The notes under the pieces: generated by a model
What the model was told of the DNA's origin: nothing
Database searches by the model: none
The model's input: the letters and a program-made list of their open reading frames with translations, nothing else
Assembly (NCBI GenBank): GCA_000387965.1
Contig: APJZ01000002.1
Coordinates: 60,001-92,000, forward strand
Direction: 5' to 3'
Source of the DNA: Candidatus Nanobsidianus stetteri
GTDB lineage: Archaea > Nanobdellota > Nanobdellia > Nanobdellales > Nanobdellaceae
DNA length: 32,000 bases
Shown here: in pieces, positions 7,307 to 26,083 of the stretch
Layout: each line of letters starts with the position of its first letter
Numbering within the stretch: the stretch's first letter is position 1
Program-made: the position numbers and the translations under genes

Positions 7307-8569
7307 TTAGCGTATTTTAAGGTTTTTTAAAATACCTTTACTTAAATTAATTGCTGTCTTATAATATTTTAATAATCCCTTTGGATTTCCTCTAAATTTA
7401 CGTAAATTAAGTAAAGATTTAGATAAATTTTTTGTAGAGTTAAGTGTAGTAGATAATATTTCTATTTTTTTTAATGAAGATATACTGGGATTTTCATAAA
7501 TAGCGTTGGTAGTATTTTTTATTATTTGTATTTCTCTTTTTAGAGCCCCCTCATTATCTAAAGATAAGAGAGCAGCAATATTAGGATTTATATTTAAATT
7601 ATTATTTATTTCATTTGCATATTTCCTACTAATAGCTTCTGCAGAAATTAACAATCTATTTAAATCTGCAAATATTTTCTGACCTTCTTCGTATGTAGTA
7701 TTCAATCTCGTATTCAGGTCGTTTAGTATTTTTCTTAATACTATCAAATACTTCGGTGTAAATTTATTTGTTCTAAATATTCTATTTCCAAACCTTCTTA
7801 ATAAAGAAATATTACTAAACATAGTATTTATTATTCTACTTAACTGTTCGGTTTTATATATGGTATCCTTATATACCATATTGAATTTTGATGAAGAAGC
7901 TACTAACATATGTTGAGTTAATCTTTCATTTTCAGTTTCTTTTAATAGGTATAATATTATATTATTTAGAGTTTCTATATCTTTTTCTATAGGATTTAAT
8001 AAGTTTCTTATGTAAGGATGATTTATTATTCTATATAGTTTATTTATATCTCTCAGAATTCCTTTTGTATCTCTATTAAAATTCCTAATATCTGATGTAG
8101 ATCTTGAGAAAATACCACTTAATCCGGGATTAATCTTGCTTAAGCTTTCTTTAAAACTTTCTAATTTAGATTTACCAATTCTAAATACTTTTATTATAAA
8201 TGCAGTAATTAATATAGGCATAACAAAAGGCCAAAAAAGGTATGTAAGTATTAAAGACATTAATGCTGAGATTGCAAACTTTTGGGATTCGGGAGCTAGA
8301 CTATTAAAAATATTTAAGAATCTTCTAAATATAAAAAGTAAAGCTAAAAATGTGACTATATATGGTAAATTTTCTATAATAATTGGTGCTAGAGGACCTA
8401 AATATTGAGAAAGAATATTAGCAGAGGATTCTAATAATTGTTTATCTAAATATAATGTACCTATCGATTCATTATACCATGTATAAATATAATTATTTGA
8501 TTGAGAATAAATGTTAGTAGAGTTTAAGATAAAGGTCAAGATTATCAGATATTTATAATTTTTTATCAT
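7307..8569 (-). CDS. membrane protein: signal/anchor, TM cluster and a long cytosolic helical tail (type B, same architecture as 5572-6843)
   Basis: Track ORF. The ATG lies about 28 nt after a TATA-like box (complement of 8591-8602). The signal region ends in IYSQS. TM helices include LPYIVTFLALLFIF and LILTYLFWPFVMPILITAFII. About 290 aa of N/L/I/K/R-rich helical tail follow. Confidence 0.6.
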   Translation of the reverse strand: MIKNYKYLIILTFILNSTNIYSQSNNYIYTWYNESIGTLYLDKQLLESSANILSQYLGPLAPIIIENLPYIVTFLALLFIFRRFLNIFNSLAPESQKFAISALMSLILTYLFWPFVMPILITAFIIKVFRIGKSKLESFKESLSKINPGLSGIFSRSTSDIRNFNRDTKGILRDINKLYRIINHPYIRNLLNPIEKDIETLNNIILYLLKETENERLTQHMLVASSSKFNMVYKDTIYKTEQLSRIINTMFSNISLLRRFGNRIFRTNKFTPKYLIVLRKILNDLNTRLNTTYEEGQKIFADLNRLLISAEAISRKYANEINNNLNINPNIAALLSLDNEGALKREIQIIKNTTNAIYENPSISSLKKIEILSTTLNSTKNLSKSLLNLRKFRGNPKGLLKYYKTAINLSKGILKNLKIR

Positions 8570-8617: not shown

Positions 8618-9376
8618 CTAATAAATAAAATTACCCGATGAAGATAAATGTTTTAATATATTGCTTTTCATTAAATTCTTTATTTCTAAAGCTTTTTCTA
8701 ATGCTAAATTTAATGCATCGTTTAATTCTCTATTTGAAATTTCTCCATCCAATTGTATTAAAGTAAATTTTTTTTCGGAAGGAATTATTGCAACTGGTAT
8801 ATCTGTAGCCCTTCCTTCTCCATAATATTCTATATATTTTGATTTTTCAGGATCTTTTCTTAATTTTTCAGAATCATAATCTTCTTCTTCTTTGTTTAAA
8901 TCTACAACAATTTTTTCCCCAACTTTTCCAACTGCTAAACCTATTACTAGATCTTTCATTGGGATACCTGCTAAAGATAATGCCAGAGATGCAGCATTTA
9001 TACTTGCAGTCCTTGTTCCAGCATCCGCATTTAATATTTCAACATATACATCTATAATACTTCCGGGGATTTCTTCTAATAATAATGCCGGCTCTAATGC
9101 TCTCTTAATTACTTCAGATAATTCAATTTCTCTTCTACCTGGTGTAGGTTTTTTCCTTTCAGGTGTAGAAAATGTTAGCATATTATATCTAACCCTTAAG
9201 AATGCTTTATCATAATCCAAAGACATTTTTGAAGGTTTTGGTCCATATACAGCAGCTAATGCAACAGTATCACCAAAAGAAAATATTGCAGATCCTTTTG
9301 CATTATCTATTACATTTAACTTTATATTTATTTTTCTTAATTCATTATATTCTCTACCATCAAATCTTTTTACCAT
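8618..9376 (-). CDS. rrp41: exosome complex exonuclease Rrp41 (RNase PH domain)
   Basis: FDGREYNELRKINI, KGSAIFSFGDTVALAAVYGPKP, PGRREIELSEVIKRALEPALLLEEIPGSIIDVYVEILNADAGTRTASINAASLALSLAGIPMKDLV. The GTRT phosphate-binding motif is present. Confidence 0.9.
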   Translation of the reverse strand: MVKRFDGREYNELRKINIKLNVIDNAKGSAIFSFGDTVALAAVYGPKPSKMSLDYDKAFLRVRYNMLTFSTPERKKPTPGRREIELSEVIKRALEPALLLEEIPGSIIDVYVEILNADAGTRTASINAASLALSLAGIPMKDLVIGLAVGKVGEKIVVDLNKEEEDYDSEKLRKDPEKSKYIEYYGEGRATDIPVAIIPSEKKFTLIQLDGEISNRELNDALNLALEKALEIKNLMKSNILKHLSSSGNFIY

Positions 9377-9378
9377 TT

Positions 9379-9978
9379 TTATTTATTTTCCAAAATTTCT
9401 TTAACCTTTTCAGTTAAACCCCTCTTATATGAATTATTTATAACAAATCTAATAATATCTACTGCTTTCAATATATCATTTACATCGCCATTTAAATATA
9501 TTCTACCATTTTTTCCAATTATTATATCAACTTTTAAATATTGTTTAATTAAATTTAACATTGAAGAATTTTTTCCAATTACTCTTGGAATTCTTGCAGG
9601 ATCTACCTTTAATATTAATCCATCATTTAATTTTTCTCTTTTCTTAATATCTAGATCTATTAATTTATTCTTTGTCATTTTTACAATTTGACATAGTATA
9701 TAATCACCATAAGTATATATATCATTTGGATCTGTTCCAACATCTTTTAAAGATAACTTTCCCATATATGGGGAATTTATATCAATTAACCATCCATTAG
9801 ATAGTACATCAATTACTTTTCCAATTACAATATCATTTACTTCTGGCATATAATATCCAAAAAGCTTTGTAGTTTTATCTTCATTTACTAATAATATATA
9901 TTTTGAATAATAATTGTTCTCTCTTTCATATGAATTATTATCTTTTTTCTTTAAATTATCTCCAGGTATTAATATCAT
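9379..9978 (-). CDS. rrp4: exosome RNA-binding subunit Rrp4 (S1 + KH)
   Basis: The S1-like segment is VNDIVIGKVIDVLSNGWLIDINSPYMGKLSL. The KH segment is VDPARIPRVIGKNSSMLNLIKQYLKVDIIIGKNGRIYLNG. The gene lies directly upstream of rrp41, with its stop at 9379 and the rrp41 start at 9376. Confidence 0.85.
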   Translation of the reverse strand: MILIPGDNLKKKDNNSYERENNYYSKYILLVNEDKTTKLFGYYMPEVNDIVIGKVIDVLSNGWLIDINSPYMGKLSLKDVGTDPNDIYTYGDYILCQIVKMTKNKLIDLDIKKREKLNDGLILKVDPARIPRVIGKNSSMLNLIKQYLKVDIIIGKNGRIYLNGDVNDILKAVDIIRFVINNSYKRGLTEKVKEILENK

Positions 9979-9979
9979 C

Positions 9980-11086
9980 TTATAGATAATATATTATATC
10001 ATTTTTAAACATGCTCTCAAGCATATACTTTTCCTCATTTTTATGTTTTATTTTTTCTGCTTCATTTTCTAATATAGAAAATATATCTTTTATTGTTGAA
10101 TATAGATCATATCCATGATCATCAATGGAGAATTTACCATTATTATATATTAATTTTGCTCTAATTTGATAATATATTTTTTTATTTTCTCTATCTTCAT
10201 TTACTTTTTTGATATGTATTAATAATCTTATATTTTCTCCCAAAACATTTCTATATTTTTTATAAAATTTCTCATATAATTTTTTTATATAACCTATATC
10301 TATTTCATCTAAAGATATTCCATGAACAACCAAATTATATTCTTTTTCCTTTTTATGTTGCAAATAATTTATTAATATATCCTTTGCTGTTATTATACCA
10401 ACTAAATTACCATTATCCAATATTGGTAATGAAAATACCTTATTTTCTATCATCAAATTAATTATTTTCTCTATATTATCGTCTTTATTTGCAAATATTA
10501 ATTTACTACTCATTATAGATTTTATTTTTATATCAAAATCTTTTTCATTTGGTGTTCTTATATTATTACTATTATCAATTAACATATATTTTAGAATATC
10601 CGTTAAAGATATTATTCCAGATACTTTATTATTTTTATCTAATACTATTAATCTTGATATACCCTTATCCTTCATTATACCAATTGCTTTTTTAATATTT
10701 TCATCTTCATATATGGTATAGGCTTCATTTATTATTTCATTTAGATTCATTTTTTCTAAAATATCTTTATCATTCAATATATCTTTTAACACATCATATA
10801 TGTTGACTATCTTTATTTGTCCGTCTTCTCTTACGAAAGTTACTCTAGAATTAGAACTAATTAATTTCTCTACTATATCAATTATATTATTTGTTTTTAA
10901 TGGCTTTATCTTATTTACTATTTTTTCAATTTTTGTATCTGGTCTATATAAATATCTAATTGCTTTAGAATTTTCTAAAACTCCAAAAGGTTTTCCATTA
11001 TTATCTGTTACAATTATATCTTCCCCCTTTTTTATATATTCAACAATATCTCCAATTTTTTTATCCTTAGATATAAATACTGCCAT
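9980..11086 (-). CDS. four-CBS (two Bateman modules) protein with a C-terminal HPF/RaiA (S30AE)-like domain
   Basis: Four CBS-like units occupy aa 1-245, for example ISRLIVLDKNNKVSGIISLTDILKYM and VFSLPILDNGNLVGIITAKDILINYL. Residues about 250-353 (nt 10028-10339) read NLVVHGISLDEIDIGYIKKLYEKFYKKY ... IRLLIHIKKV ... YQIRAKLIYNNGKFSIDDHGYDLYSTIKDIFSILENEAEKIKHK. This follows my recollection of the HPF/RaiA pattern. Confidence 0.7.
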   Translation of the reverse strand: MAVFISKDKKIGDIVEYIKKGEDIIVTDNNGKPFGVLENSKAIRYLYRPDTKIEKIVNKIKPLKTNNIIDIVEKLISSNSRVTFVREDGQIKIVNIYDVLKDILNDKDILEKMNLNEIINEAYTIYEDENIKKAIGIMKDKGISRLIVLDKNNKVSGIISLTDILKYMLIDNSNNIRTPNEKDFDIKIKSIMSSKLIFANKDDNIEKIINLMIENKVFSLPILDNGNLVGIITAKDILINYLQHKKEKEYNLVVHGISLDEIDIGYIKKLYEKFYKKYRNVLGENIRLLIHIKKVNEDRENKKIYYQIRAKLIYNNGKFSIDDHGYDLYSTIKDIFSILENEAEKIKHKNEEKYMLESMFKNDIIYYL

Positions 11087-11123
11087 TAATCTATATAATA
11101 AAAAATTTTTAAATGATTATTTT

Positions 11124-11765
11124 CTATCTTTTTGTATGTTCTGGTAATTCATATAGAGCTTCCATAGGTCCATAGATATAGTATTTTACTTTACGTTTCT
11201 TCTTTGGACGTTCTTCTTGGTGGTATACCCAATATATGGCTGCAATTACAAATCCTATTATTATAAGGAATGGGAGTAAACCAGTATATATCAATGTAAG
11301 GAATATTTCTATTATTATATTTTGAGCAGTTGATCCAAATCCATTAAAATCTGTTGAGGATGCATATAGAAATGCAAATAGAACTGTAAGAGTTATAAAT
11401 CCAACAATAACATTATGTGAATATTGCTTATATCTTTCAAATTCTTCATCCCCTTTATATGGTTCTGATATACCAGCCATTAATGCAATAATCATTAGAA
11501 TAAAAAATATAACAAGTACTTCAAAGAAGAAGAAAGATATAAAGTTTGATGTAAATATAACATCAGATATATTATATAGATAATAAAAAGATATTACCAT
11601 AGAAATTATTGCATACAGTTTTTCTTTATTTGGATTATCCTTTCCAAATAAACCAGTTTTTCTAAGAGATCCATATAATAATGAAAATACTAATAAGAAT
11701 GGTGCTACAAATGTAAATATTCCATATTCTGAAAATAAATTATAAATAAAAGATGATAGATCCAT
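11124..11765 (-). CDS. 5-TM membrane protein, paralog 3 of a tandem trio
   Basis: The N-terminus MDLSSFIYNLFSEYGIFTFVAPFLLVFSLLYGSLRK carries the family motif G-[FI]-x-x-[FV]-[VI]-x-P-F-L-L. The C-terminal tail is basic (ERPKKKRKVKYY). The start lies 1 nt after the paralog 2 stop. Confidence 0.65.
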   Translation of the reverse strand: MDLSSFIYNLFSEYGIFTFVAPFLLVFSLLYGSLRKTGLFGKDNPNKEKLYAIISMVISFYYLYNISDVIFTSNFISFFFFEVLVIFFILMIIALMAGISEPYKGDEEFERYKQYSHNVIVGFITLTVLFAFLYASSTDFNGFGSTAQNIIIEIFLTLIYTGLLPFLIIIGFVIAAIYWVYHQEERPKKKRKVKYYIYGPMEALYELPEHTKR

Positions 11766-11766
11766 T

Positions 11767-12372
11767 TTATCTAGATACTAATAATACTGGGCTATTCCTT
11801 TTTTCTTCCTCCCTTTCTTCTTCCTTTTCTCCACCACCAACTAGCCACATTAATACTAGGAATATAAGTCCAAATACAATTAATAGTTCTAAAATACCAG
11901 ATTGAATAAGATAGTTTATTGTATATGATAATAAAGATGCTATTGGTGATGAAGATGGTCCTGCTATGCTTAAGGAATTTATAGCTAACCATAATATTAT
12001 TCCTATAACAAGGAATGCAAATAAAGCTCTTAACCATGAAGGTATCTTTTTATTTGTAATTGCTAATACAATAACTATTAAAGTAAATCCAATTATAGCT
12101 ATAGTAGCACTGGGAATAAAGGATAATAACCATTTTACCAAATTTTGATTATATATTGATAAAAGAGCAAATCCGAAAGAAAATAAAGCACTTAATTTTC
12201 TACCTACAGGATCATCTGGACTTACTTTTAATAGATTAGATAATTCTAATATCATGAATACCAAAGAAAATATTAATAAAAATGGTAGAACAAAATCTAT
12301 AAATCCATATTGGGATAATAATTGATTAAAATTCACTGGATTAAAATTTATTTGGGGTAATGGATTTATCAT
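11767..12372 (-). CDS. 5-TM membrane protein, paralog 2 of a tandem trio
   Basis: The motif is QYGFIDFVLPFLLIFSLVF. The track start 12423 would overlap paralog 1 by 55 nt. The internal ATG at 12372 (MINPLPQINF) forms an ATGA overlap with the paralog 1 stop, so I call 12372. The tail is acidic (GGGEKEEEREEEKR). Confidence 0.6.
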   Translation of the reverse strand: MINPLPQINFNPVNFNQLLSQYGFIDFVLPFLLIFSLVFMILELSNLLKVSPDDPVGRKLSALFSFGFALLSIYNQNLVKWLLSFIPSATIAIIGFTLIVIVLAITNKKIPSWLRALFAFLVIGIILWLAINSLSIAGPSSSPIASLLSYTINYLIQSGILELLIVFGLIFLVLMWLVGGGEKEEEREEEKRNSPVLLVSR

Positions 12373-12950
12373 TTTGATTGCGAAGGTCCCGATCCTTGGC
12401 CTTTTGAAGGTTTTATAGCCCAATATGCTATTCCAAACATTATTGCTAAAATTACTATTGTTTCTATGAATGGTTGTAATGAAGAAAGTGTTGAAGATGA
12501 TGCTGATGCTGCCGAAGCAATATAATTATATAAGCCGAGTATAAATATTACTATCAATGTAAATATAATTATTGAAGATGCTAATAATATCATTCTTGTT
12601 CTATTACCTATCTGTATTTCTCCACTCTTTTCTTCTCTCTGTAAAAATGGAGAAATTGCCAATATAAGGAAAAATACTGTTAATAAAAATAATACTATAT
12701 AAGGAATTAATGTTCTTAATGATAATACAACATTTGCAGATCCAACTATGAAAAATCCTGTAGCTGCAGATACAATTGATATTAAACTTCTAGTAACCCT
12801 TCCCCTATCTCCCTCAGCAAAAGGATCTCCCAATATTTTATACTTACTTAATATACCATACATTACAGCATAAACTAATAGAAATGGTAATATAACATTG
12901 AAGAATCCAAGGTTATTCAATAAAGTTATAAATGTATCATAAAACGCCAT
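12369..12950 (-). CDS. 5-TM membrane protein, paralog 1 of a tandem trio
   Basis: The N-terminus is MAFYDTFITLLNNLGFFNVILPFLLVYAVMYGILSKYK. Four further hydrophobic helices follow. An exposed loop is Ser/Ala-rich (SAASASSSTLSS). The tail is KPSKGQGSGPSQSK. Confidence 0.65.
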   Translation of the reverse strand: MAFYDTFITLLNNLGFFNVILPFLLVYAVMYGILSKYKILGDPFAEGDRGRVTRSLISIVSAATGFFIVGSANVVLSLRTLIPYIVLFLLTVFFLILAISPFLQREEKSGEIQIGNRTRMILLASSIIIFTLIVIFILGLYNYIASAASASSSTLSSLQPFIETIVILAIMFGIAYWAIKPSKGQGSGPSQSK

Positions 12951-12976: not shown

Positions 12977-13192
12977 TTAATCTTTATCTAATATTTCTTG
13001 ATAATATATAGCATTTGTAGGACATGCCTTTGCAGCAGTCTTTATATCTTCTATATCTTCTTCAGAAGAAATTATATTATTTTTTATTATTATTCTATTA
13101 TTTTCAATTGAAAAAACATTTTTATTTATTAAATAGCATGCCAAACAATTTATACATTTACTATAATCAATATCTACTATATATTTCATCAA
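12977..13192 (-). CDS. small single-cluster 4Fe-4S ferredoxin (copy 2)
   Basis: CINCLAC (CxxCxxC) plus a distal ACP (AAKACPTNAI) in 71 aa. The start forms an ATGA overlap with the upstream ferredoxin. Confidence 0.75.
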   Translation of the reverse strand: MMKYIVDIDYSKCINCLACYLINKNVFSIENNRIIIKNNIISSEEDIEDIKTAAKACPTNAIYYQEILDKD

Positions 13193-13398
13193 TTATTTAA
13201 TTCTTCTACTTTAACTGAATGTGTTGGGCATGCAACTTCAGCATCTTTAGCTTTTTCTATTAAATTTGGATCTTCAATAATTTCAATTTTTGCTTTTGAT
13301 TTTCCATCAGAATCGAATTCATATATTTCTGGCGCAACTGCAATACATGTTCCGCAACCAATGCAGGTATCTTTATTAATCCATGTTTTTATTTTCAT
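13189..13398 (-). CDS. small single-cluster 4Fe-4S ferredoxin (copy 1)
   Basis: CIGCGTCIAVAP ... EVACPTHSV is a layout like the small archaeal single-cluster ferredoxins. 69 aa. Confidence 0.8.
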   Translation of the reverse strand: MKIKTWINKDTCIGCGTCIAVAPEIYEFDSDGKSKAKIEIIEDPNLIEKAKDAEVACPTHSVKVEELNN

Positions 13399-13450: not shown

Positions 13451-14278
13451 GTGGAATTAAATGAGATTTTTGTTAGAGTAACAGATATAACAGATTATAT
13501 TTTTTGTCCTAGAAAAGTTTATCTAAAAAGGGTTTTAGGATATTCTGAAGAAGATACTGAACAAAAAATATTTGGATCAATTGTTCATTCTTTATTTGAT
13601 AAAATAAATGAAAAAGAGCAAGAAATAATATTTAATATAAAAGAGTTTGTTGAATATGAAAAAATATTAAATTTATATAATAATTTTTTAACAGAATTGT
13701 TAGAAGAATCTATAAAAGAATTTGAAGAACAAATAAAAAATTTAAATTTAGATAAAAACGATATAAAAATAAGGGCATATAGTTATGTAATAAAGGATAT
13801 AGAGGAGAGAGCAAAAAATGTATATAATTTTATGAAGGATAATGATTTATACGGAATAGAATTATGGGAATTCTTAGAACCAAAAATAAAGACAGAACTT
13901 GATGTTACATCTTTAAAATATAATATAGTTGGGAGAATTGATAGATTAGAAATATATAAAAAATATATAATACCTTATGAAATAAAATCTGGATTTTTTA
14001 GAAGAGAACATATTACACAACTATATTCATATTATTTATTATTAAAGGATGAATTTCCAAATTATAATATAGAGAAAGGTATATTATTATATGCAAAAGA
14101 TAATCGCAAAATGGAAATAGAGTTTAGAAATAATAATGAAATAAAGAAAATACTTGATATAAAGGATAAAATAATTGATATGATTGATAAAAAAGAAGAT
14201 CCTGGAAAGAAATTTTCTGAAAAATGTAAAAAATGTGCATTTTATAATATTTGCTGGAAAAATGGAAATAAAAATTGA
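13451..14278 (+). CDS. Cas4-like / RecB-family PD-(D/E)xK nuclease with a 4-Cys cluster (stand-alone)
   Basis: Motifs seen: N-terminal Cys (YIFCPRKVY), GRIDRLE ... PYEIKSG (D ... E-x-K), QLYSYYLLL (QxxxY) and C-terminal CKKCAFYNIC. The start is GTG. No CRISPR repeats or other cas genes are nearby. Confidence 0.75.
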   Translation: MELNEIFVRVTDITDYIFCPRKVYLKRVLGYSEEDTEQKIFGSIVHSLFDKINEKEQEIIFNIKEFVEYEKILNLYNNFLTELLEESIKEFEEQIKNLNLDKNDIKIRAYSYVIKDIEERAKNVYNFMKDNDLYGIELWEFLEPKIKTELDVTSLKYNIVGRIDRLEIYKKYIIPYEIKSGFFRREHITQLYSYYLLLKDEFPNYNIEKGILLYAKDNRKMEIEFRNNNEIKKILDIKDKIIDMIDKKEDPGKKFSEKCKKCAFYNICWKNGNKN

Positions 14279-15026
14279 TACTAGAAAAAGTATATATGAA
14301 AATATAAATGAAATATATGAAAAAATAAAGGAATTAAAGAATAAAAAGCAAAAGATAGAGAGTTTGATAAAAGAATTGGAAGAAAAATTAAATAATATTG
14401 AAGAAAAAATAATTATTGAAAAAAAGAAAGAAGAGATTAAGAGAAATAAAAAATGGTATGAGAAATTTAGATGGATGTTTACAACAAATAATTTTTTATT
14501 AATTGCTGGGAAAGATTCTATTACAAATGAAATTATTATAAATAAATATTTAGAAAAAAATGATCTAGTATTCCATGCAGATATTGTAGGATCTCCTTTT
14601 GGTATACTAAAAAATGGAAGAAATGCAAGTGAAATAGATATATATGAAGCTGCAAAATTTGTTGGATCATATTCTAGAGCATGGAAAAATAAATTATCCT
14701 CTATAGATGTATATTATGTATACCCAGATCAGGTATCAAAAAAGGCACCTTCTGGAATGTATTTAAAAAAAGGATCTTTTATGATATATGGAGAGAAAAA
14801 TTATATAAAAGTGAATTTAGAAATTGCATTGGCTTTTGAAGATTATAATATTATTCCAGGGGTACCTGAAAGTATAAAGGATAAATATAAAAGATATGTT
14901 ATATTAATCCCAGGAAATAAAAAACCAATAGATATTGCAAAACAGTTGGAAAATATTTTTAAAGTTGATTATAATATTATATTAGGATACCTTCCTGGTG
15001 ATAGTGATATACTATACCTCAGGTAA
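14262..15026 (+). CDS. NFACT-R (DUF814) domain protein with an N-terminal coiled coil; lacks an NFACT-N domain
   Basis: KWYEKFRWMFTTNNFLLIAGKDSITNEIIINKYLEKNDLVFHADIVGSPFGILK and AAKFVGSYSRAWKNKLSSIDVYYVYPDQVSKKAPSGMYLKKGSFMIYG match the C-terminal domain of NEMF/RqcH/FbpA-like proteins. The track start 14184 overlaps the Cas4-like gene by 95 nt. ATG 14262 (MEIKIDTRK) leaves a 17-nt overlap. Confidence 0.7.
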   Translation: MEIKIDTRKSIYENINEIYEKIKELKNKKQKIESLIKELEEKLNNIEEKIIIEKKKEEIKRNKKWYEKFRWMFTTNNFLLIAGKDSITNEIIINKYLEKNDLVFHADIVGSPFGILKNGRNASEIDIYEAAKFVGSYSRAWKNKLSSIDVYYVYPDQVSKKAPSGMYLKKGSFMIYGEKNYIKVNLEIALAFEDYNIIPGVPESIKDKYKRYVILIPGNKKPIDIAKQLENIFKVDYNIILGYLPGDSDILYLR

Positions 15027-19189: not shown

Positions 19190-21394
19190 ATGGCTAGTCT
19201 AACTGAAAGAATATTGCAAGTTATGAATAATCCGAATAATATAAGGAATATAGGTATAATTGCTCATATACACCATGGAAAGACAACGTTGACAGATTCT
19301 TTATTGGCAGGTGCGGGAATGTTGGCAGAAGAGCTTGCAGGTGAGGCGATGTTTACATGGTGGCACGAAACTGAAAGACAAAGAGAAATGACAGTATATG
19401 GAGCTGCAGTTTCAATGGTTCATAATTATGAAAATCAAGATTATTTAATAAATTTAATAGATACTCCAGGACACGTAGAATTTTCAGGACAGGTTACTAG
19501 AGCTACTAGAGCAATTGATGGTGCAATTGTTGTAGTAGATTTTGTTGATGGAATAATGCCTCAAACAGAAACTGTATTGAGGACAGCATTAAAAGAATAT
19601 GTAAAACCAGTATTATTTATAAATAAAACTGATAGAGCGATTACAGAATTAAAATTATCTCCACAACAAATTATGGAAAGAATTGGAAAGATAGTTATTG
19701 AAGTAAATAGATTAATTGATAAATATTCTCCTCCAGAATTTAAAGGAAAATGGAATGTAAATGTAAATGACGGATCTGTTGCATTTGGATCTGCAAAATT
19801 CCATTGGGCATTATCAGTACCTTTTATGAAAAAATACAATGTTTCATTTAAAGATGTAATTGAAATATATAATCAATTTTTAGAGGATAAAGAAAAATTA
19901 AAGGAAGAAATGAGAAAAAAGGCACCTGTTGCAAAGGTTGTATTAGATATGGTTATAAGACATTTACCCTCCCCAGTTGAAGCTCAAAAATATAGAATTC
20001 CTCATATATGGAAGGGAGATATAAATTCAGATGTTGGAAAAGCAATGTTAAATTTAGATTCAAACGGACCAATTGTAATAAATGTAACAAATGTAATAAT
20101 TGATAAAGTATCAAAACAAGAAATTGCAACTGCAAGAATATTTTCAGGTACATTATCAAAAGGTGATGATGTATATTTAATCCAAGCTGGAAGGCAAATA
20201 AAAATACAACAGGTTGCTATATGGAAGGGAATACAGAGAATAAATGTAGATTCTGCAAAGGCTGGTAATATAATTGCTTTAGTTGGAATAAAGGGATTAT
20301 ATCCTGGGGAAACAATTGTTGGAAAAGTTCAAGATCCAAAAAGTGTTGAAACATTCGAAGAGATGAGACATTGGTTAGATCCTGTGGTTACAAAATCATT
20401 TGAACCAAAGAATCCAAATGATTTGCCAAAATTAATTGAAACATTAGATCTATTAACAAGAGAAGATCCAACAATAAAGGTTGAACAAAAAAGAGATACT
20501 GGAGAAATCATAGTATCCGGTTTGGGAGATTTACATTTACAAATAATAGAATATAGAGTACAGAATGATTTTGGAATACCTGTAAAGGTTGGAGATCCAA
20601 TAGTAATTTATAGAGAGTCGGTTAATAAAGCTACACAGGTATATGAAGGAAAGTCTCCAAATAAACATAACAAAATATACATACAAATTGAACCTTTACC
20701 ATATGAAATATATGAAAAAATGAGAGAATATATTAGGGAAGGAAAATTACCTGAAGGTAGAATTAAAAAGGAAGATTTATGGAAAGTGTTTAATGAAATT
20801 GGGTTTGATAAAGAAGAAGCAAGGAGAATTATAATGGTACATAATGGAAATGTATTGATAGATATGACAAGAGGTATTGTTCATTTGCCAGAAGTAATAG
20901 AATACATTGTTGAAGGATTTAAGGAAGTAATGGATCAAGGTCCATTGGCATGGGAACCTGGTATAATGATGAAAGTAAAATTGATTGATGCAGTATTACA
21001 TGAAGATGCAATTCATAGAGGTCCTGCTCAAATAATTCCTGCAGCAAAGGAGGCAATTAAAAGTGCAATCCTTGAACAACCAACATTATATGAACCATTA
21101 CAAATTATAAGGATTGATGCTCCTCCAGAATCTGTTGGAGATGTAACATCTATATTACAATCAAGAAGGGGACAAATATTGGAAATGAATATTGAAGAAG
21201 AAAGAGCAATGGTTAAGGCAAAGCTACCCGTAGCAAATATATTTGGATTTACAGATGAATTAAGGTCTGCAACATCTGGAAAGGGTGTTTGGTTCTTAGA
21301 AGATCAGGTATATGAAAAAGTTCCAAAAGATTTACAGCAACAAATAATAGATTCTATTAGAAAAAGAAAGGGAATACCTGAAGGGGTTCACTAA
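19190..21394 (+). CDS. fusA: translation elongation factor 2 (aEF-2)
   Basis: IRNIGIIAHIHHGKTTLTDSLL, LINLIDTPGHVEFSGQVTRATRAIDGAIVVVD, MPQTETVLRTAL, VLFINKTDR, and the domain IV tip LHEDAIHRGPAQIIPA. The diphthamide-target His is His609, nt 21014-21016. Confidence 0.95.
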   Translation: MASLTERILQVMNNPNNIRNIGIIAHIHHGKTTLTDSLLAGAGMLAEELAGEAMFTWWHETERQREMTVYGAAVSMVHNYENQDYLINLIDTPGHVEFSGQVTRATRAIDGAIVVVDFVDGIMPQTETVLRTALKEYVKPVLFINKTDRAITELKLSPQQIMERIGKIVIEVNRLIDKYSPPEFKGKWNVNVNDGSVAFGSAKFHWALSVPFMKKYNVSFKDVIEIYNQFLEDKEKLKEEMRKKAPVAKVVLDMVIRHLPSPVEAQKYRIPHIWKGDINSDVGKAMLNLDSNGPIVINVTNVIIDKVSKQEIATARIFSGTLSKGDDVYLIQAGRQIKIQQVAIWKGIQRINVDSAKAGNIIALVGIKGLYPGETIVGKVQDPKSVETFEEMRHWLDPVVTKSFEPKNPNDLPKLIETLDLLTREDPTIKVEQKRDTGEIIVSGLGDLHLQIIEYRVQNDFGIPVKVGDPIVIYRESVNKATQVYEGKSPNKHNKIYIQIEPLPYEIYEKMREYIREGKLPEGRIKKEDLWKVFNEIGFDKEEARRIIMVHNGNVLIDMTRGIVHLPEVIEYIVEGFKEVMDQGPLAWEPGIMMKVKLIDAVLHEDAIHRGPAQIIPAAKEAIKSAILEQPTLYEPLQIIRIDAPPESVGDVTSILQSRRGQILEMNIEEERAMVKAKLPVANIFGFTDELRSATSGKGVWFLEDQVYEKVPKDLQQQIIDSIRKRKGIPEGVH

Positions 21395-21424: not shown

Positions 21425-21595
21425 ATGGGAAATAAAATTGGTGAATGCAAATATTGTAATAGACCTGTATATGATGATGAAAAATATAGGATAATAAATT
21501 TAAATGGTGAAAAGATGATTTTTCATATATCTTGTTTTAGAAAATTAAAAAAGGAAGCAATTGATTTAGCAAAGAAAGGATTTGTTAATTTCTAA
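21425..21595 (+). CDS. small zinc-ribbon-like protein (56 aa)
   Basis: It is not in the track. The translation is MGNKIGECKYCNRPVYDDEKYRIINLNGEKMIFHISCFRKLKKEAIDLAKKGFVNF, with C-x2-C ... H-x2-C ligand spacing. It starts 30 nt after the EF-2 stop. Its stop codon overlaps the stop codon of the convergent platform gene. Confidence 0.45.
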   Translation: MGNKIGECKYCNRPVYDDEKYRIINLNGEKMIFHISCFRKLKKEAIDLAKKGFVNF

Positions 21596-22425
21596 ATCTT
21601 TGGTTGATATATATGTATCATATATAAATATGTAATATATGAAAAAGGGATAATTACAATAAAGAAGAATAATAATGAATTTAAAATATTTACATTTCCT
21701 GATGCAATTGAAAATAGGAATGCTAAAATTAATAATACCATTGGAAATGTTATAAAGAAAAAGGCATATAATGTTACCCATAAATTGACCTTTTCATTAT
21801 ATTCCTTCAATTGTATTTCATATTCTTCTAAATTTTGTTTTGCATATATTCTTGCAAAATCTTTTAAAGAACCTCCGGATCTAATTACTGATATTAATCC
21901 ATATAAAAATTCTTTGAATTTTTCTGAAGGTGTTTTTCGAGCTAATTCTAATAATGCTGATAAAATATCATATCCGAAATTATTAATTAATATTAATAAA
22001 TATGAAATTTCTTTATTTATTGCTCCAAATCTTTTTTCTTTATTTAATAATTTAAATATATCTATTATATTCATTTGGGAACCTGAATATGAATAAAAGT
22101 ATAATGCAAAAAATGGTAAATTATCTTCTATATCTTTTACATAATCTGCCTTTGCTAATGATGGATAAATATAAAAATAAATAAATGTTAAAAATCCAAC
22201 AATAATTCCAAATAAAACACTTACAGAAAATAATACTATATTATAGAAATTTAGATAGAAGATAAATATTAATGATAAAGATATAAAAGATAATATAAAT
22301 GTTAGGAAAGAATATTTCAATGTTGTTTTTATATAATCTTCAATAGAAGTTTTAAATTGTGTATAAAATATATCATATTTTTTATCCTTAAAATATGGGT
22401 ACAGTTTTTTTACTAAGAAGTTCAT
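21592..22425 (-). CDS. FlaJ/TadC/PilC-like platform membrane protein with a single T2SS-F domain
   Basis: NLPFFALYFYSYSGSQMNIIDIFKLL ... GAINKEISYLLILINNFGYDILSALLELARKTPSEKFKEFLYGLISVIRSGGSLKDF, flanked by TM helices. The start forms an ATGA overlap with the upstream ATPase. Confidence 0.75.
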   Translation of the reverse strand: MNFLVKKLYPYFKDKKYDIFYTQFKTSIEDYIKTTLKYSFLTFILSFISLSLIFIFYLNFYNIVLFSVSVLFGIIVGFLTFIYFYIYPSLAKADYVKDIEDNLPFFALYFYSYSGSQMNIIDIFKLLNKEKRFGAINKEISYLLILINNFGYDILSALLELARKTPSEKFKEFLYGLISVIRSGGSLKDFARIYAKQNLEEYEIQLKEYNEKVNLWVTLYAFFFITFPMVLLILAFLFSIASGNVNILNSLLFFFIVIIPFSYITYLYMIHIYQPKI

Positions 22426-23969
22426 ATTTTTCTCAATAAAGAATCTTTATCAATATAATATAGCCTTACATATTCAGCAATTTTTTTATTTTCTCTTATA
22501 TTTTTCTTTACCAAATAATCTATTACTTGTTTTTTCTCTTCTATTGAATCTTTAAAACTTATATTTGATCCAACCCTATATTTTAATGTTTCTTCAGTAT
22601 ATTTTCCTAAATCTTTTTTATCAAATGTATCATTTTCGAAATTCCACTTTATAACTGTTTCATTTTCAATCTTTCCATTTAAATATTTTCCAACTTCAAC
22701 AATTTCTCTTATCCTTCTAGCAGAGGGAGAAATATTCCTTGCCCTCATTGTAAATACTACAGCATCCAATAATGCAACATGATCTGGAGTTAAATTAATT
22801 GGTGCTGTTGTTAATCTTCTTATTAATGCCCTCCAACTATCGGTATGTATAGTTGATAGTGCAGAATGACCAGAGGCCATTCCCTGGAACATTACATATG
22901 TTTCTTCTCCTCTTACTTCTCCAACTATTACATAATCTGGATTTTGTCTAAAAGATTCTGATAATAATCTATACATATCAATTTCTCCATAGTATTTATC
23001 TCCAACAAAGAAACCTTTTCTTGTTGTTGCAGGAATCCAATTTTCATGATATAATTGTAATTCTCTCGTATCTTCAATAGATATTACCTTTGCTTCTGGT
23101 GGTATAAATTGAGCAATTGAATTTAGTAATGTTGTCTTTCCAGAAGATGTAGAACCTGCAATTAATATATTTGCTCTATATTCTACTAACGTCCATAAAT
23201 ACGCAGCAATTTCAGAATCTAACATGTTTGATTTTATTAAATCTACTAATGATAACATTTGTTTTTTGAATTTTCTTATTGTAAATGTTGGACCATGTGT
23301 AGTAATTTCTTGCGAATATGTTGCATTTACTCTTGATCCATCATCTAATGTTGCATCCAAAATTGGTTCTGCATAAGATATATGTTTCCCAGCCTTTTGT
23401 GCTAATTTTACTATAAATTTATCTAATTCATCCCTAGATAAAATTATATTTGTCCTTAATATTCCAAATTTATTATGATGTACATATATTGGTATATCAT
23501 ATCCATCACATGAAATATCCTCAATAAATATATCATAAAATAATGGATGAATTTTTTCATATCCTAACATATCCCTCCATAAATAATAATAATATTTTAT
23601 GAATAAATCTTTACCTATTTTTATTTTATATCTATTTACAAATTCTTCCAATTTTTTTATTAACACATATTCTTTATTTTTATTTAAAAATTCTTCGGGA
23701 TCTTTGTACATTTCATCCAAAATATATTGTTTTATCTTTTCTATTAATATTCTTTCTTCATCAGATATTTCTGGTTCTAATAATTCATATACAAGTTCTT
23801 CAGATATATTATCATAATAAATATGTGCATATGCAAGTTTTCCAATTAGTGGATAAATTATATCAATTTTTGATTTATCGATGTTAGATTTTATATCTGG
23901 TATAAAAGATTCCTTTTTTATTTCATTATCAAAATATTTTAATATTTCTTCTGCAACAATTTTTTTCAT
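22422..23969 (-). CDS. FlaI/PilB/VirB11-family secretion ATPase
   Basis: Walker A is IAGSTSSGKTTLLNSI. The Asp box is VISIEDTRELQL. Walker B and the His box are NPDYVIVGEVRGEETYVMFQGMASGHSALSTIHTDS. Confidence 0.9.
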   Translation of the reverse strand: MKKIVAEEILKYFDNEIKKESFIPDIKSNIDKSKIDIIYPLIGKLAYAHIYYDNISEELVYELLEPEISDEERILIEKIKQYILDEMYKDPEEFLNKNKEYVLIKKLEEFVNRYKIKIGKDLFIKYYYYLWRDMLGYEKIHPLFYDIFIEDISCDGYDIPIYVHHNKFGILRTNIILSRDELDKFIVKLAQKAGKHISYAEPILDATLDDGSRVNATYSQEITTHGPTFTIRKFKKQMLSLVDLIKSNMLDSEIAAYLWTLVEYRANILIAGSTSSGKTTLLNSIAQFIPPEAKVISIEDTRELQLYHENWIPATTRKGFFVGDKYYGEIDMYRLLSESFRQNPDYVIVGEVRGEETYVMFQGMASGHSALSTIHTDSWRALIRRLTTAPINLTPDHVALLDAVVFTMRARNISPSARRIREIVEVGKYLNGKIENETVIKWNFENDTFDKKDLGKYTEETLKYRVGSNISFKDSIEEKKQVIDYLVKKNIRENKKIAEYVRLYYIDKDSLLRKI

Positions 23970-24754: not shown

Positions 24755-26083
24755 TTATATATTAAATATTTTTCTCTGATAATCTTCTAAGAAAAATATA
24801 TCTTCTCCCAATGTATATCCATAATCTGATGCAATATTATAATATGATGCCTTTTTATTTATATCTCCATGATTTGGTATTATATATTCAGGATTTAGCA
24901 TTTTTAATAACATTATATGATCTTGACTTTTTCCATGACCTGATACATGTATATCCTTTATTATTTCTGCTTTTCTTCTTTTTAATCTTTCTTCCAATAT
25001 TTTTCTATTTGCTTCATTTATTGGATGTGGAATTATATTATTTGCAAATATTACTGTTGTATTACTTAGATCAAAATTATATTCTCCCCTTGCCAATCTA
25101 TCTAAAATAGAACCAGGTTCACCCTGATGTCCAGTAACAATTAATAAATATTCTTCCTTATTTTTTTCTACTCTTTCTAAAACTTTTTTATAATCCCTTG
25201 GATCAAAATATACCTCCGCTTCTTTAGAAAAATTGTATAAATTAATATTTTCTGCAGCACTAATATATTTTCCCAAACTTCTTCCAATAAATATTGGTTT
25301 TCTATTTATTTCTTTTGATAATTCAATTATTGATTTTAACCTTGCAATATGTGATGAGAATGTTGTTATAATTATTCCTTTTGTATCTATTGAATGTAAT
25401 ACATCATATAACATATATTTTTCAATAATTTCTGATTGTGATTTTGAATTTTCTTCAACCCTTGTTGTTTCACAAATTAATAATAAAACCCCTTCCTTTC
25501 CAATTTTCTTTAATTTTTCTTTATCAGGTTTTTTACCAATAATTGGAAAATTATCAAATTTAAAATCACCTGAAAATATTATATGACCTTTATTTGTTTG
25601 AATATCAATCATTAATGATTGTGGAATTGAATGAGTAATATTAATAAAATTAATTGAAATATCTTCTGAAATTTTAATTGAAGAATTTGGAGATATTTTT
25701 TTTAAATCATTTGGTAAAATAATTCCATATTCTTTTTCTTGTTGTTTTATTAGTTCAATTGTATATGGAGATGCATAAATTGGAACATTATATTTTGGTG
25801 CAATAAAATTTACTGCACCTATATGATCTAAATGTCCATGTGTTAATATTATTGCCTTTACTTTATCTTTATAATTTTCTAAAATTGAGTCATCAGGTAT
25901 TATATCTAAATCATATAATTCTTTTAATGGTTTATTAGTTATATCTTCCCTTTCTCCAAATTGAGATACTTTATCTACATTTATTCCAATATCTATTATA
26001 ATTATTTTATCATCAATTCTTATTGCACTCATATTTTTTCCTATATATGAATATCCACCTATTGGAAAAACTTCAATTTCCAT
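24755..26083 (-). CDS. rnj: beta-CASP ribonuclease J (archaeal RNase J)
   Basis: IGGYSYIGKNMSAIRIDDKIIIIDIG and ILTHGHLDHIGAV (HxHxDH). At 442 aa, and with a GKN rather than GRS N-terminal motif, it fits RNase J better than aCPSF2. Confidence 0.8.
   Translation of the reverse strand: MEIEVFPIGGYSYIGKNMSAIRIDDKIIIIDIGINVDKVSQFGEREDITNKPLKELYDLDIIPDDSILENYKDKVKAIILTHGHLDHIGAVNFIAPKYNVPIYASPYTIELIKQQEKEYGIILPNDLKKISPNSSIKISEDISINFINITHSIPQSLMIDIQTNKGHIIFSGDFKFDNFPIIGKKPDKEKLKKIGKEGVLLLICETTRVEENSKSQSEIIEKYMLYDVLHSIDTKGIIITTFSSHIARLKSIIELSKEINRKPIFIGRSLGKYISAAENINLYNFSKEAEVYFDPRDYKKVLERVEKNKEEYLLIVTGHQGEPGSILDRLARGEYNFDLSNTTVIFANNIIPHPINEANRKILEERLKRRKAEIIKDIHVSGHGKSQDHIMLLKMLNPEYIIPNHGDINKKASYYNIASDYGYTLGEDIFFLEDYQRKIFNI

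Follow-up and report, generated by a model that had tools for sequence, protein, structure and literature searches.

A probable HibA/AHA-type ribosome hibernation factor encoded directly upstream of the exosome genes rrp4 and rrp41 in Nanoarchaeales

What does a reduced archaeon do with a protein that joins a series of CBS motifs to a domain resembling the HPF/RaiA factors of bacteria, and what can be read from the fact that its gene directly precedes those of the exosome? This question is raised by a gene on the minus strand of a 32,000-nucleotide stretch of the genome of Candidatus Nanobsidianus stetteri (contig APJZ01000002.1, positions 60,001 to 92,000; the whole of this stretch is referred to as the window). 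A preliminary description had read the gene as a four-CBS module fused to an HPF/RaiA-type silencing domain, and this core reading, for an archaeon, was borne out by the homology to the archaeal protein HibA, by matches to HPF profiles and by the predicted fold. In our view the gene, called hibA below, is very probably an ortholog, in Nanopusillus, of HibA/AHA, a ribosome hibernation factor of archaea, an assignment that rests on its architecture, its fold and its homology to the founding member. The CBS-HPF fusion as such was already published in 2025-2026 as HibA/AHA and has been reported to be widespread in archaea, so that there is little new in the family call. The position of hibA at the head of an rrp4-rrp41 cluster is the sole aspect without a published account in the literature searched. 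The gene and its parts are the following.

9980..11086, minus strand: hibA/AHA-type gene, 368 amino acids, ATG start, stop codon TAA at 9980-9982 (list of open reading frames and homology to HibA)
10352..11086, minus strand: CBS tetrad, two Bateman modules arranged as a disc, residues 1-245 (Pfam CBS, AlphaFold2 model, Foldseek)
10598..10618, minus strand: ribose-phosphate motif of CBS3, G157-I-I-S-L-T-D163 (pattern search; G157 and D163 are (nearly) invariant in the family)
10529..10579, minus strand: loop between CBS3 and CBS4, LIDNSNNIRTPNEKDFD, counterpart of the 'PTC loop' of HibA and of 'loop 3' of AHA, residues ~170-186, a 17-residue coil in the AlphaFold2 model
10379..10399, minus strand: ribose-phosphate motif of CBS4, G230-I-I-T-A-K-D236 (pattern search and conservation)
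10043..10339, minus strand: HPF/RaiA-type domain (AlphaFold2 domain model, Foldseek, domain profile and hhalign)
10166..10192, minus strand: beta2-beta3 hairpin lengthened by 9 residues, R299-Q307, when compared with E. coli HPF (seen as a gap in the alignments with HPF)
9983..10042, minus strand: C-terminal tail, residues 349-368, with clade-conserved Y354, K361 and Y367, predicted to be helical with low confidence (predicted local distance difference test score, pLDDT, of 45-53)

HibA was described in Pyrococcus abyssi (PAB0961, Q9UYR4; PDB 9SR9-9SRF and 9T7H; Madru et al., Nat Commun 2026, PMC13324472) and AHA, a member of the same family that is built alike, comes from Haloferax volcanii (HVO_2384; Souza et al., bioRxiv 2026, PMC12934967). 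The support given in these papers comprises cryo-EM structures, inhibition of translation in vitro and knockout phenotypes (PMC13324472, PMC12934967). A phmmer search of the PDB sequences with the window protein returned chain 9sr9_H, a protein of 392 amino acids that is labelled 'Dehydrogenase' (E=1.5e-17, residues 19-342 versus 32-367). With a profile built from 15 family members the same chain ranked first, at E=3e-34, and the alignment extended over both modules (residues 9-355 versus 21-380 of 392). According to the data-availability statement of PMC13324472, entry 9SR9 is 'HibA-ATP', that is P. abyssi HibA, in which the CBS module is reported to cover residues 1-269 and the HPF/RaiA-like domain residues 270-392. 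The window protein resembles HibA in size (368 versus 392 amino acids) and in domain order, with the CBS tetrad first and the HPF/RaiA domain second, and the two can be aligned end to end. Moreover, it has in common with HibA and AHA the position of a loop between CBS3 and CBS4, the extended beta2-beta3 hairpin and the retention of the nucleotide motifs in CBS3 and CBS4.

The N-terminal part of the protein had been described as four CBS motifs, i.e. two Bateman modules, and we found the same. Pfam PF00571 (CBS) matches the protein with E=1.7e-28 in two units, at residues ~115-170 and 188-238. These units are CBS3 and CBS4, the only ones found by Pfam; the divergent CBS1 and CBS2 are visible solely in the structure model, and the homologs in the family alignment show 3-4 Pfam CBS stretches. 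The AlphaFold2 model of the whole protein (pLDDT 87.7, predicted template modelling score 0.84, from an alignment of 18 sequences) contains four beta-alpha-beta-beta-alpha CBS units within residues 1-246. In a Foldseek comparison of this full model with the PDB, 257-290 columns were aligned with the four-CBS proteins MJ1225 (3lfz), SriB, Dri and AMPK-gamma, with E-values between 1e-13 and 3e-15, and with SSO3205.

The ribose-phosphate pattern G-h-h-S/T-x-x-D is confined to CBS3 (157-163) and CBS4 (230-236) and was found in neither CBS1 nor CBS2, which have lost the canonical motifs. In CBS4, G230 is nearly invariant across the distant homologs, whereas T233 and D236 are nearly invariant in the alignment of the Nanoarchaeales. 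By analogy with the characterised family members, the CBS3/CBS4 pair with its canonical motifs probably binds AMP, ADP or ATP. HibA was reported to bind nucleotides at the CBS3/CBS4 interface with the order of affinity AMP > ADP > ATP (dissociation constants of 12, 65 and 113 uM) and with one AMP (PMC13324472), and AHA carries two AMP at the CBS3/CBS4 junction (PMC12934967). AMP and ATP caused no clear change in the binding of HibA to ribosomes in vitro or in its occupancy, as reported in PMC13324472; the term 'CBS-gated', which the preliminary description had used, goes beyond this, as gating is not an established property of the characterised HibA/AHA members either. The loop at residues 170-186, which bears a clade-conserved IRTP motif, aligns with residues ~190-207 of HibA (RFKAQYGELAGEKIPPFS) and is ~4 residues shorter.

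As the full-length Foldseek comparison was dominated by the tetrad, the C-terminal domain was modelled separately (pLDDT 87.2). In a Foldseek search of the PDB with this domain model, ranks 1-36 were all taken by hibernation factors of the HPF/RaiA/YfiA/pY/PSRP1/MPY/RafH kind, which agrees with the HPF fold that had been proposed. The best match was Listeria HPF 8uu7_w (E=4.4e-6, template modelling score 0.81 on the target), and E. coli HPF 2rql was superimposed with a template modelling score of 0.80 and a root mean square deviation of 2.0 A over 100 columns. The stretch assigned to the domain beforehand, nucleotides 10028-10339, indeed corresponds to residues 250-353, and the three peptide segments cited in its support are located at residues 251-278, 286-295 and 308-348. 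The AlphaFold2 model also reproduces the HPF layout that had been proposed, in the form of a strand (E251-255), a helix (H264-282), three strands (E287-298, E303-314 and E317-325) and a last helix (H328-348).

The sequence comparisons point in the same direction, provided that they proceed from the family: for the homology to HPF to become visible, profiles of the family, searches by way of intermediate homologs or structural comparison are needed. More specifically, a profile of the domain alone, searched against the PDB sequences, reached E. coli HPF 4v8h_AX over the full domain (E=1.8e-6) and then many other HPF/RaiA chains, and hhalign aligned the domain to E. coli HPF with a probability of 93% and E=3.4e-7 (the HPF sequence used agrees with PDB entry 2rql). 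The residues D327-L-Y-S-T-I332 align with DMYAAI of E. coli HPF and represent the signature that had been given as 'DMY.AID'. An exhaustive phmmer search with the domain alone over 1.84 billion representatives returned only 11 proteins, among which were the CBS fusions P0038, P0039 and P0041 and the standalone protein P0042 of 137 amino acids, and each of these exceeds the gathering score of Pfam Ribosomal_S30AE. Because homologs that are reached from the domain pass PF02482, the HPF domain of the window protein is homologous to the proteins covered by the curated bacterial models, yet lies outside these models.

The hairpin extension R299-Q307 is the equivalent of beta14-beta15, an archaeal-specific insertion of HibA that was reported to contact uS12 and the decoding centre (PMC13324472). 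It is one of two archaeal-specific insertions in the HPF domain of HibA, the other being beta13-alpha11, and deletion of both left the inhibition in vitro unchanged (PMC13324472). The HPF domain of the window protein is basic, with an isoelectric point of 9.1, and is followed by a tail of which residues 351-368 are acidic (isoelectric point 4.4). In P. abyssi the C-terminus of HibA is directed to the mRNA exit channel (PMC13324472).

A number of observations weigh against the assignment to HibA/AHA or limit what can be transferred from it. Pfam Ribosomal_S30AE (PF02482) gave no match on the window protein at E<=1, and NCBIfam yfiA (TIGR00741) stayed below its threshold, with E=0.008 and 16.6 bits versus a cut-off of 40.9 bits (residues 267-354, aligned to positions 20-99 of the 102 in the model); NCBIfam RaiA NF007654 reached E=0.18. 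A significant S30AE profile match, which had been put forward as a check on the HPF claim, was thus not obtained directly, and since such scans are insufficient by themselves, family profiles and structure were used instead. The full-length Foldseek matches were CBS-tetrad proteins only, because the tetrad dominates the comparison and because the HibA entries post-date the cut-off of the library (2026-04-08). The window protein is only ~25% identical to P. abyssi HibA, its CBS3-CBS4 loop falls short of the HibA PTC loop by the residues mentioned above, and the first archaeal-specific insertion of HibA (beta1-alpha1) is not evident, as there is no gap at that place relative to HPF and the segment is 2 residues shorter than in HibA. 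In these respects, as in the absence of a direct Pfam S30AE match, it differs from HibA. Because of the shorter loop and the insertion that is not evident, the details of the contacts with the ribosome may differ from those of HibA. For the Nanoarchaeales, moreover, the binding of ribosomes and of nucleotides as well as the co-transcription are matters of inference.

The published structures of HibA and AHA nevertheless provide a coherent picture of how a protein of this kind would act. HibA's C-terminal domain occupies the 30S subunit's mRNA/tRNA channel, its CBS module was seen at three positions on the 50S subunit, namely the peptidyl-transferase centre (PTC), uL5 and the L1 stalk, the C-terminal tail of uS19 is among its archaeal-specific contacts in the P. 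abyssi structure, and the protein blocks translation in vitro (PMC13324472). In AHA it is loop 3 of CBS3 that is inserted in the PTC (PMC12934967). By analogy, the basic HPF domain of the window protein would be anchored at the decoding centre, inside the 30S mRNA/tRNA channel, the vacant tRNA sites on the 50S subunit would be taken by the CBS disc that is tethered to it, and the loop at residues 170-186 might be able to reach the PTC. An idle 70S ribosome would in this way be held, translation would be blocked and the rRNA would be shielded from nucleases during starvation or stress. The preliminary description had considered S30AE-type factors to be essentially restricted to bacteria and plastids, a statement that has been superseded: of 4026 archaeal genomes, 47% were reported to have HibA, with every major lineage represented (PMC13324472), and 3,160 homologs of AHA were found in 2,723 species of 17 phyla (PMC12934967).

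The comparison with close relatives indicates that hibA is a functional gene. The window protein is 92-96% identical to proteins of Candidatus Nanopusillus and Nanobsidianus, the closest relatives, and the host was rightly described as a reduced archaeon (the genome of N. acidilobi measures 605,887 bp). The ratio of non-synonymous to synonymous substitution rates (dN/dS) was determined in comparison with four genomes of Nanopusillus and Nanobsidianus. It amounts to 0.05-0.10 when the gene is taken as a whole, to 0.03-0.08 in the CBS module and to 0.07-0.14 in the HPF domain. Since it is low in both modules, hibA is, as judged from these ratios, under purifying selection in both and no relic. 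Across the order Nanoarchaeales the length of HibA varies only between 363 and 382 amino acids, and both modules contain invariant residues.

It can be noted separately that hibA evolves much faster than rrp41, with HibA identities of 36-41% where Rrp41 is 72-77% identical in the same genome pairs (L018, L019 and L005 versus the window). This fast divergence of HibA contrasts with the low dN/dS of 0.05-0.10 inside Nanopusillus.

The second part of the question concerns the genomic context of hibA. The elements involved are listed here, including a gene that is found in related loci.

9379..9978, minus strand: rrp4, exosome cap subunit (NCBIfam NF003181, E=1.2e-46; Pfam RRP4_S1 and KH_6)
8618..9376, minus strand: rrp41, exosome RNase PH subunit (TIGR02065, E=5.5e-77; Pfam RNase_PH, E=5.3e-35)
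11087..11123, minus strand: intergenic stretch of 37 nucleotides upstream of hibA, with a TATA-like box TTTAAAAA at 11106-11113, ~24 nucleotides before the ATG
L005:6127-6576, L020:5219-5665, L031:1210-1632 and L035:6186-6638: helix-turn-helix (HTH) gene between hibA and rrp4 (TIGR03879)

The stop codon of hibA had been placed 1 nucleotide from the start of rrp4, and indeed a single base separates TAA (9980-9982) from the rrp4 ATG at 9978; likewise, two bases separate the stop codon of rrp4 from the rrp41 ATG at 9376. The identities of Rrp4 and Rrp41, confirmed by NCBIfam and Pfam, also uphold the statement that hibA lies directly upstream of exosome genes. This arrangement is conserved: a block consisting of two ferredoxin genes, three genes for paralogous membrane proteins, hibA, rrp4 and rrp41 was kept in all 14 species genomes of the Nanoarchaeales that were recovered. 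Nanopusillus, Nanobsidianus, Nanobdella, Nanoclepta, YN1 and MC-1 are among them, and the HibA identities go down to 36-39%; the short MC-1 locus stops before rrp41 and the short L019 contig is without the upstream part. A search for related loci with the family alignment yielded, as full-length relatives, only those of the Nanoarchaeales, next to unrelated CBS proteins. We sampled the context of six distant homologs (P0021, P0036, P0038, P0039, P0041 and P0043). In the metagenomic relatives P0036 and P0038 the order is hibA-HTH-rrp4, and the more distant homologs P0021, P0039, P0041 and P0043 lie away from exosome genes. Because the linkage is kept in the Nanoarchaeales and in P0036 and P0038 and is missing at the other four, hibA-rrp4-rrp41 is, on the genomes compared, a clade-specific association. 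The main text of neither the HibA nor the AHA paper mentions an exosome neighbourhood of hibA (PMC13324472, PMC12934967). As a side observation, P0039 (31% identity, with a Pfam S30AE match) is encoded directly before the genes of uS19 and Rpo11 (L034:1015-2827).

In four deeper-branching lineages a gene for an HTH protein of 140-150 amino acids is present between hibA and rrp4. Its product is 60-70% identical between the lineages, which exceeds the conservation of HibA, and scores 78.7 bits, above the cut-off, with the NCBIfam model TIGR03879 ('probable regulatory domain, near KaiC'). The HTH protein is missing at the hibA-rrp4 position in Nanopusillus, Nanobdella and Nanoclepta, and none was found in the whole of the 32-kb window; possibly it regulates the cluster and has been lost from it or moved elsewhere.

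With respect to transcription, an A/T box at a like distance from the start codon recurs in most of the 13 lineages aligned, which weakly suggests that hibA has its own promoter and that the hibA-rrp4-rrp41 transcript is leaderless or has a short leader, the evidence being weak because the genome has a G+C content of 24% (as does the window). Considering the gaps of 1 and 2 nucleotides together with the conserved synteny, hibA is probably co-transcribed with rrp4 and rrp41 from this TATA-like promoter. A scan with a bacterial sigma-70/terminator model gave 59 sites versus 62 expected, the model being bacterial and uninformative for an archaeon.

A connection between ribosome idling and the exosome operon may also be considered. 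In other archaea the SBDS gene is part of the exosome superoperon. According to PMC13324472, aSBDS was seen on idle ribosomes together with HibA. These two facts make it conceivable, by analogy, that factors of ribosome idling are functionally linked to the exosome operon. Along these lines hibA might, in the Nanoarchaeales and close relatives, be a promoter-proximal gene of the exosome operon that couples a ribosome protector to the 3'-5' RNA degrader, and HibA may choose the ribosomes that are open to the exosome or stand in for aSBDS. We regard this extension as rather improbable.

The same adjacency could be taken one step further, in the sense that the HibA architecture was re-purposed and now serves as an exosome-associated factor that acts mainly with Rrp4 and Rrp41 instead of in ribosome hibernation, for instance by presenting or withholding rRNA or other RNA or by making the exosome dependent on adenylates. 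The tight cluster that hibA opens, with its gaps of 1 and 2 nucleotides, and the preservation of the order in 14 Nanoarchaeales loci as well as with P0036 and P0038 are in line with such a role, and so is the description of the archaeal exosome as the main 3'-5' RNA decay machine (PMC13324472). However, the HPF domain retains both the 30S-binding signature and the fold, and purifying selection acts on both modules. In addition, P0021, P0039, P0041 and P0043 are not beside exosome genes, the HTH gene splits hibA from rrp4 in four lineages, and adjacency is weak evidence where synteny is in general strongly kept, as in small symbiont genomes. An interaction with the exosome is not described in the main text of either the HibA or the AHA paper (PMC13324472, PMC12934967). 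We therefore consider a conversion into an exosome factor very unlikely. Even less can be said for a generic CBS regulator, such as an HhpR-like transcription regulator or a metabolic sensor, whose resemblance to HPF would be superficial. Such a reading would agree with the public names of the orthologs ('CBS domain-containing protein', 'predicted transcriptional regulator' and 'homoserine O-acetyltransferase'), with the missing Pfam S30AE match and with weak partial matches to CBS regulators in NCBIfam (HhpR, E=1.2e-8). The latter are, however, limited to the CBS part and far under the cut-offs, whereas for the C-terminal domain the profile (E=1.8e-6), hhalign (93%) and the fold (36 top matches) all indicate HPF, and the best full-length match in the PDB is HibA and not a standalone CBS protein, which makes a superficial resemblance extremely improbable. 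Both the exosome cofactor and the generic CBS regulator were rejected as the main explanation, on the basis of the HPF fold and profile, the homology to HibA and the context of the distant homologs.

A further possibility is that hibernation was lost in the obligate ectosymbiont and that the gene is a degenerating relic, kept by its operon position only. This would account for the low identity of HibA (36-39%) where Rrp41 of the same genomes is 72-77% identical, and for the loss of the nucleotide motifs in CBS1 and CBS2. Yet a relic would not be expected to show a length restricted to 363-382 amino acids with invariant residues in both modules, a dN/dS of 0.03-0.14 and a confident structure prediction, and the loss of the CBS1/CBS2 motifs fits HibA/AHA, where nucleotides are found only at the CBS3/CBS4 junction. 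There is, in our estimate, next to no chance that hibA is a decaying gene, and the assignment to the HibA/AHA family is the one retained here.

A comparison with other ribosome-associated and adenylate-binding systems helps to delimit the family. With the HPF/RaiA proteins of bacteria and plastids (YfiA, pY, PSRP1; PF02482) the window protein shares the D-[ML]-Y-x-x-I signature ahead of the last helix and, presumably, the site in the 30S mRNA/tRNA channel. Unlike in these proteins, which are either standalone (~95-115 amino acids) or long HPF with a dimerisation domain, the domain in the window protein is C-terminal to a CBS tetrad of 245 amino acids, has the 9-residue hairpin insertion and scores below the family thresholds. 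HibA and AHA hold 70S monomers by bridging both subunits, whereas many bacterial HPF homologs promote 100S dimers (PMC12934967). A CBS tetrad of the same kind is present in Dri of Pyrobaculum calidifontis (PDB 9E6Q and 9E7F) and in SriA-D/ARC of Methanosarcina acetivorans (PDB 9ZNF-9ZNI); SriB (9znf_4) is the best Foldseek match of the full model, with E=2.9e-15, and Dri (9e6q_3) follows with E=7.6e-14. Like HibA and AHA, the Dri and Sri factors occupy functional sites of the ribosome. They differ from the window protein, which combines one tetrad with an HPF domain, in that they lack an HPF domain; moreover, Dri has two tetrads, while each Sri protein consists of a standalone tetrad and binding is in tandem. 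The phyletic patterns of Sri/Dri and HibA/AHA are reported to be largely exclusive (PMC12934967, PMC13324472). Finally, the adenylate sensors AMPK gamma and MJ1225 have the same four-CBS disc (Foldseek E-values of ~1e-13 to 4e-15), with the motifs of the window protein in the second Bateman module. Unlike AMPK gamma, the window protein has no kinase partner, and its tetrad is tethered to a putative ribosome-binding domain. From HibA and AHA as described it differs in the position of its gene directly upstream of rrp4-rrp41 and in its host, an ectosymbiont with a genome of 0.6 Mb.

The remainder of the window contains some further features that may be of use for comparison.

13451-15026, plus strand: gene for a Cas4/PD-(D/E)XK-like nuclease, which overlaps that of an NFACT-R protein (homolog of ribosome quality-control factors)
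19190-21394, plus strand: aEF2
21592-23969, minus strand: type IV pilus/archaellum ATPase and platform protein
24755-26083, minus strand: RNase J-like beta-CASP nuclease

Upstream of hibA, at 11124-12950 and 12977-13398 (both minus strand), three paralogous multi-pass membrane proteins are encoded, followed further upstream by two small 4Fe-4S ferredoxins. The membrane proteins, of 213, 218 and 193 amino acids, have no family match, and the open reading frames of the latter two overlap by ~55 nucleotides as called. This block is on the same strand as hibA and is syntenic with hibA-rrp4-rrp41 across the Nanoarchaeales. The gene after rrp41 (7307-8569, minus strand) encodes a protein of 420 amino acids with an N-terminal hydrophobic segment and without a family match, which is conserved only within Nanopusillus, at 63-79% identity. 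Unlike in the canonical archaeal exosome superoperon, rrp42, csl4 and SBDS were not found after rrp41 in the window; tRNA genes were not found in the 32-kb window either.

The names under which the orthologs are currently stored hardly reflect their probable function. NCBI and UniRef give the ortholog of the cultivated Nanobdella aerobiophila (P0009, L001:5001-6104) the name 'homoserine O-acetyltransferase', and others are listed as 'CBS domain-containing protein', 'hypothetical protein' or 'predicted transcriptional regulator'. These names are mis-annotations of a HibA/AHA-type protein. The automated name given by JGI to P0003, which is 94% identical to the window protein, is 'CBS domain-containing protein/ribosome-associated translation inhibitor RaiA'. 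The practical value of the present analysis is therefore in annotation: the window gene and its orthologs should be named HibA/AHA.

The work on HibA and AHA has made clear that hibernation of the HPF type is not limited to bacteria, and has shown its coupling to an adenylate-binding module similar to AMPK gamma. The preliminary description had independently arrived, from the raw sequence alone, at an architecture that counted as a major advance when it was reported in 2025-2026. For the biology of the Nanoarchaeales two points follow. An obligate ectosymbiont with a genome of 0.6 Mb keeps a hibernation factor under strong purifying selection, and the preservation of ribosomes therefore seems to matter for host-dependent cells. 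Moreover, the conserved linkage with rrp4 and rrp41 is a hint that the protection of ribosomes and the decay of RNA by the exosome may be coordinated.

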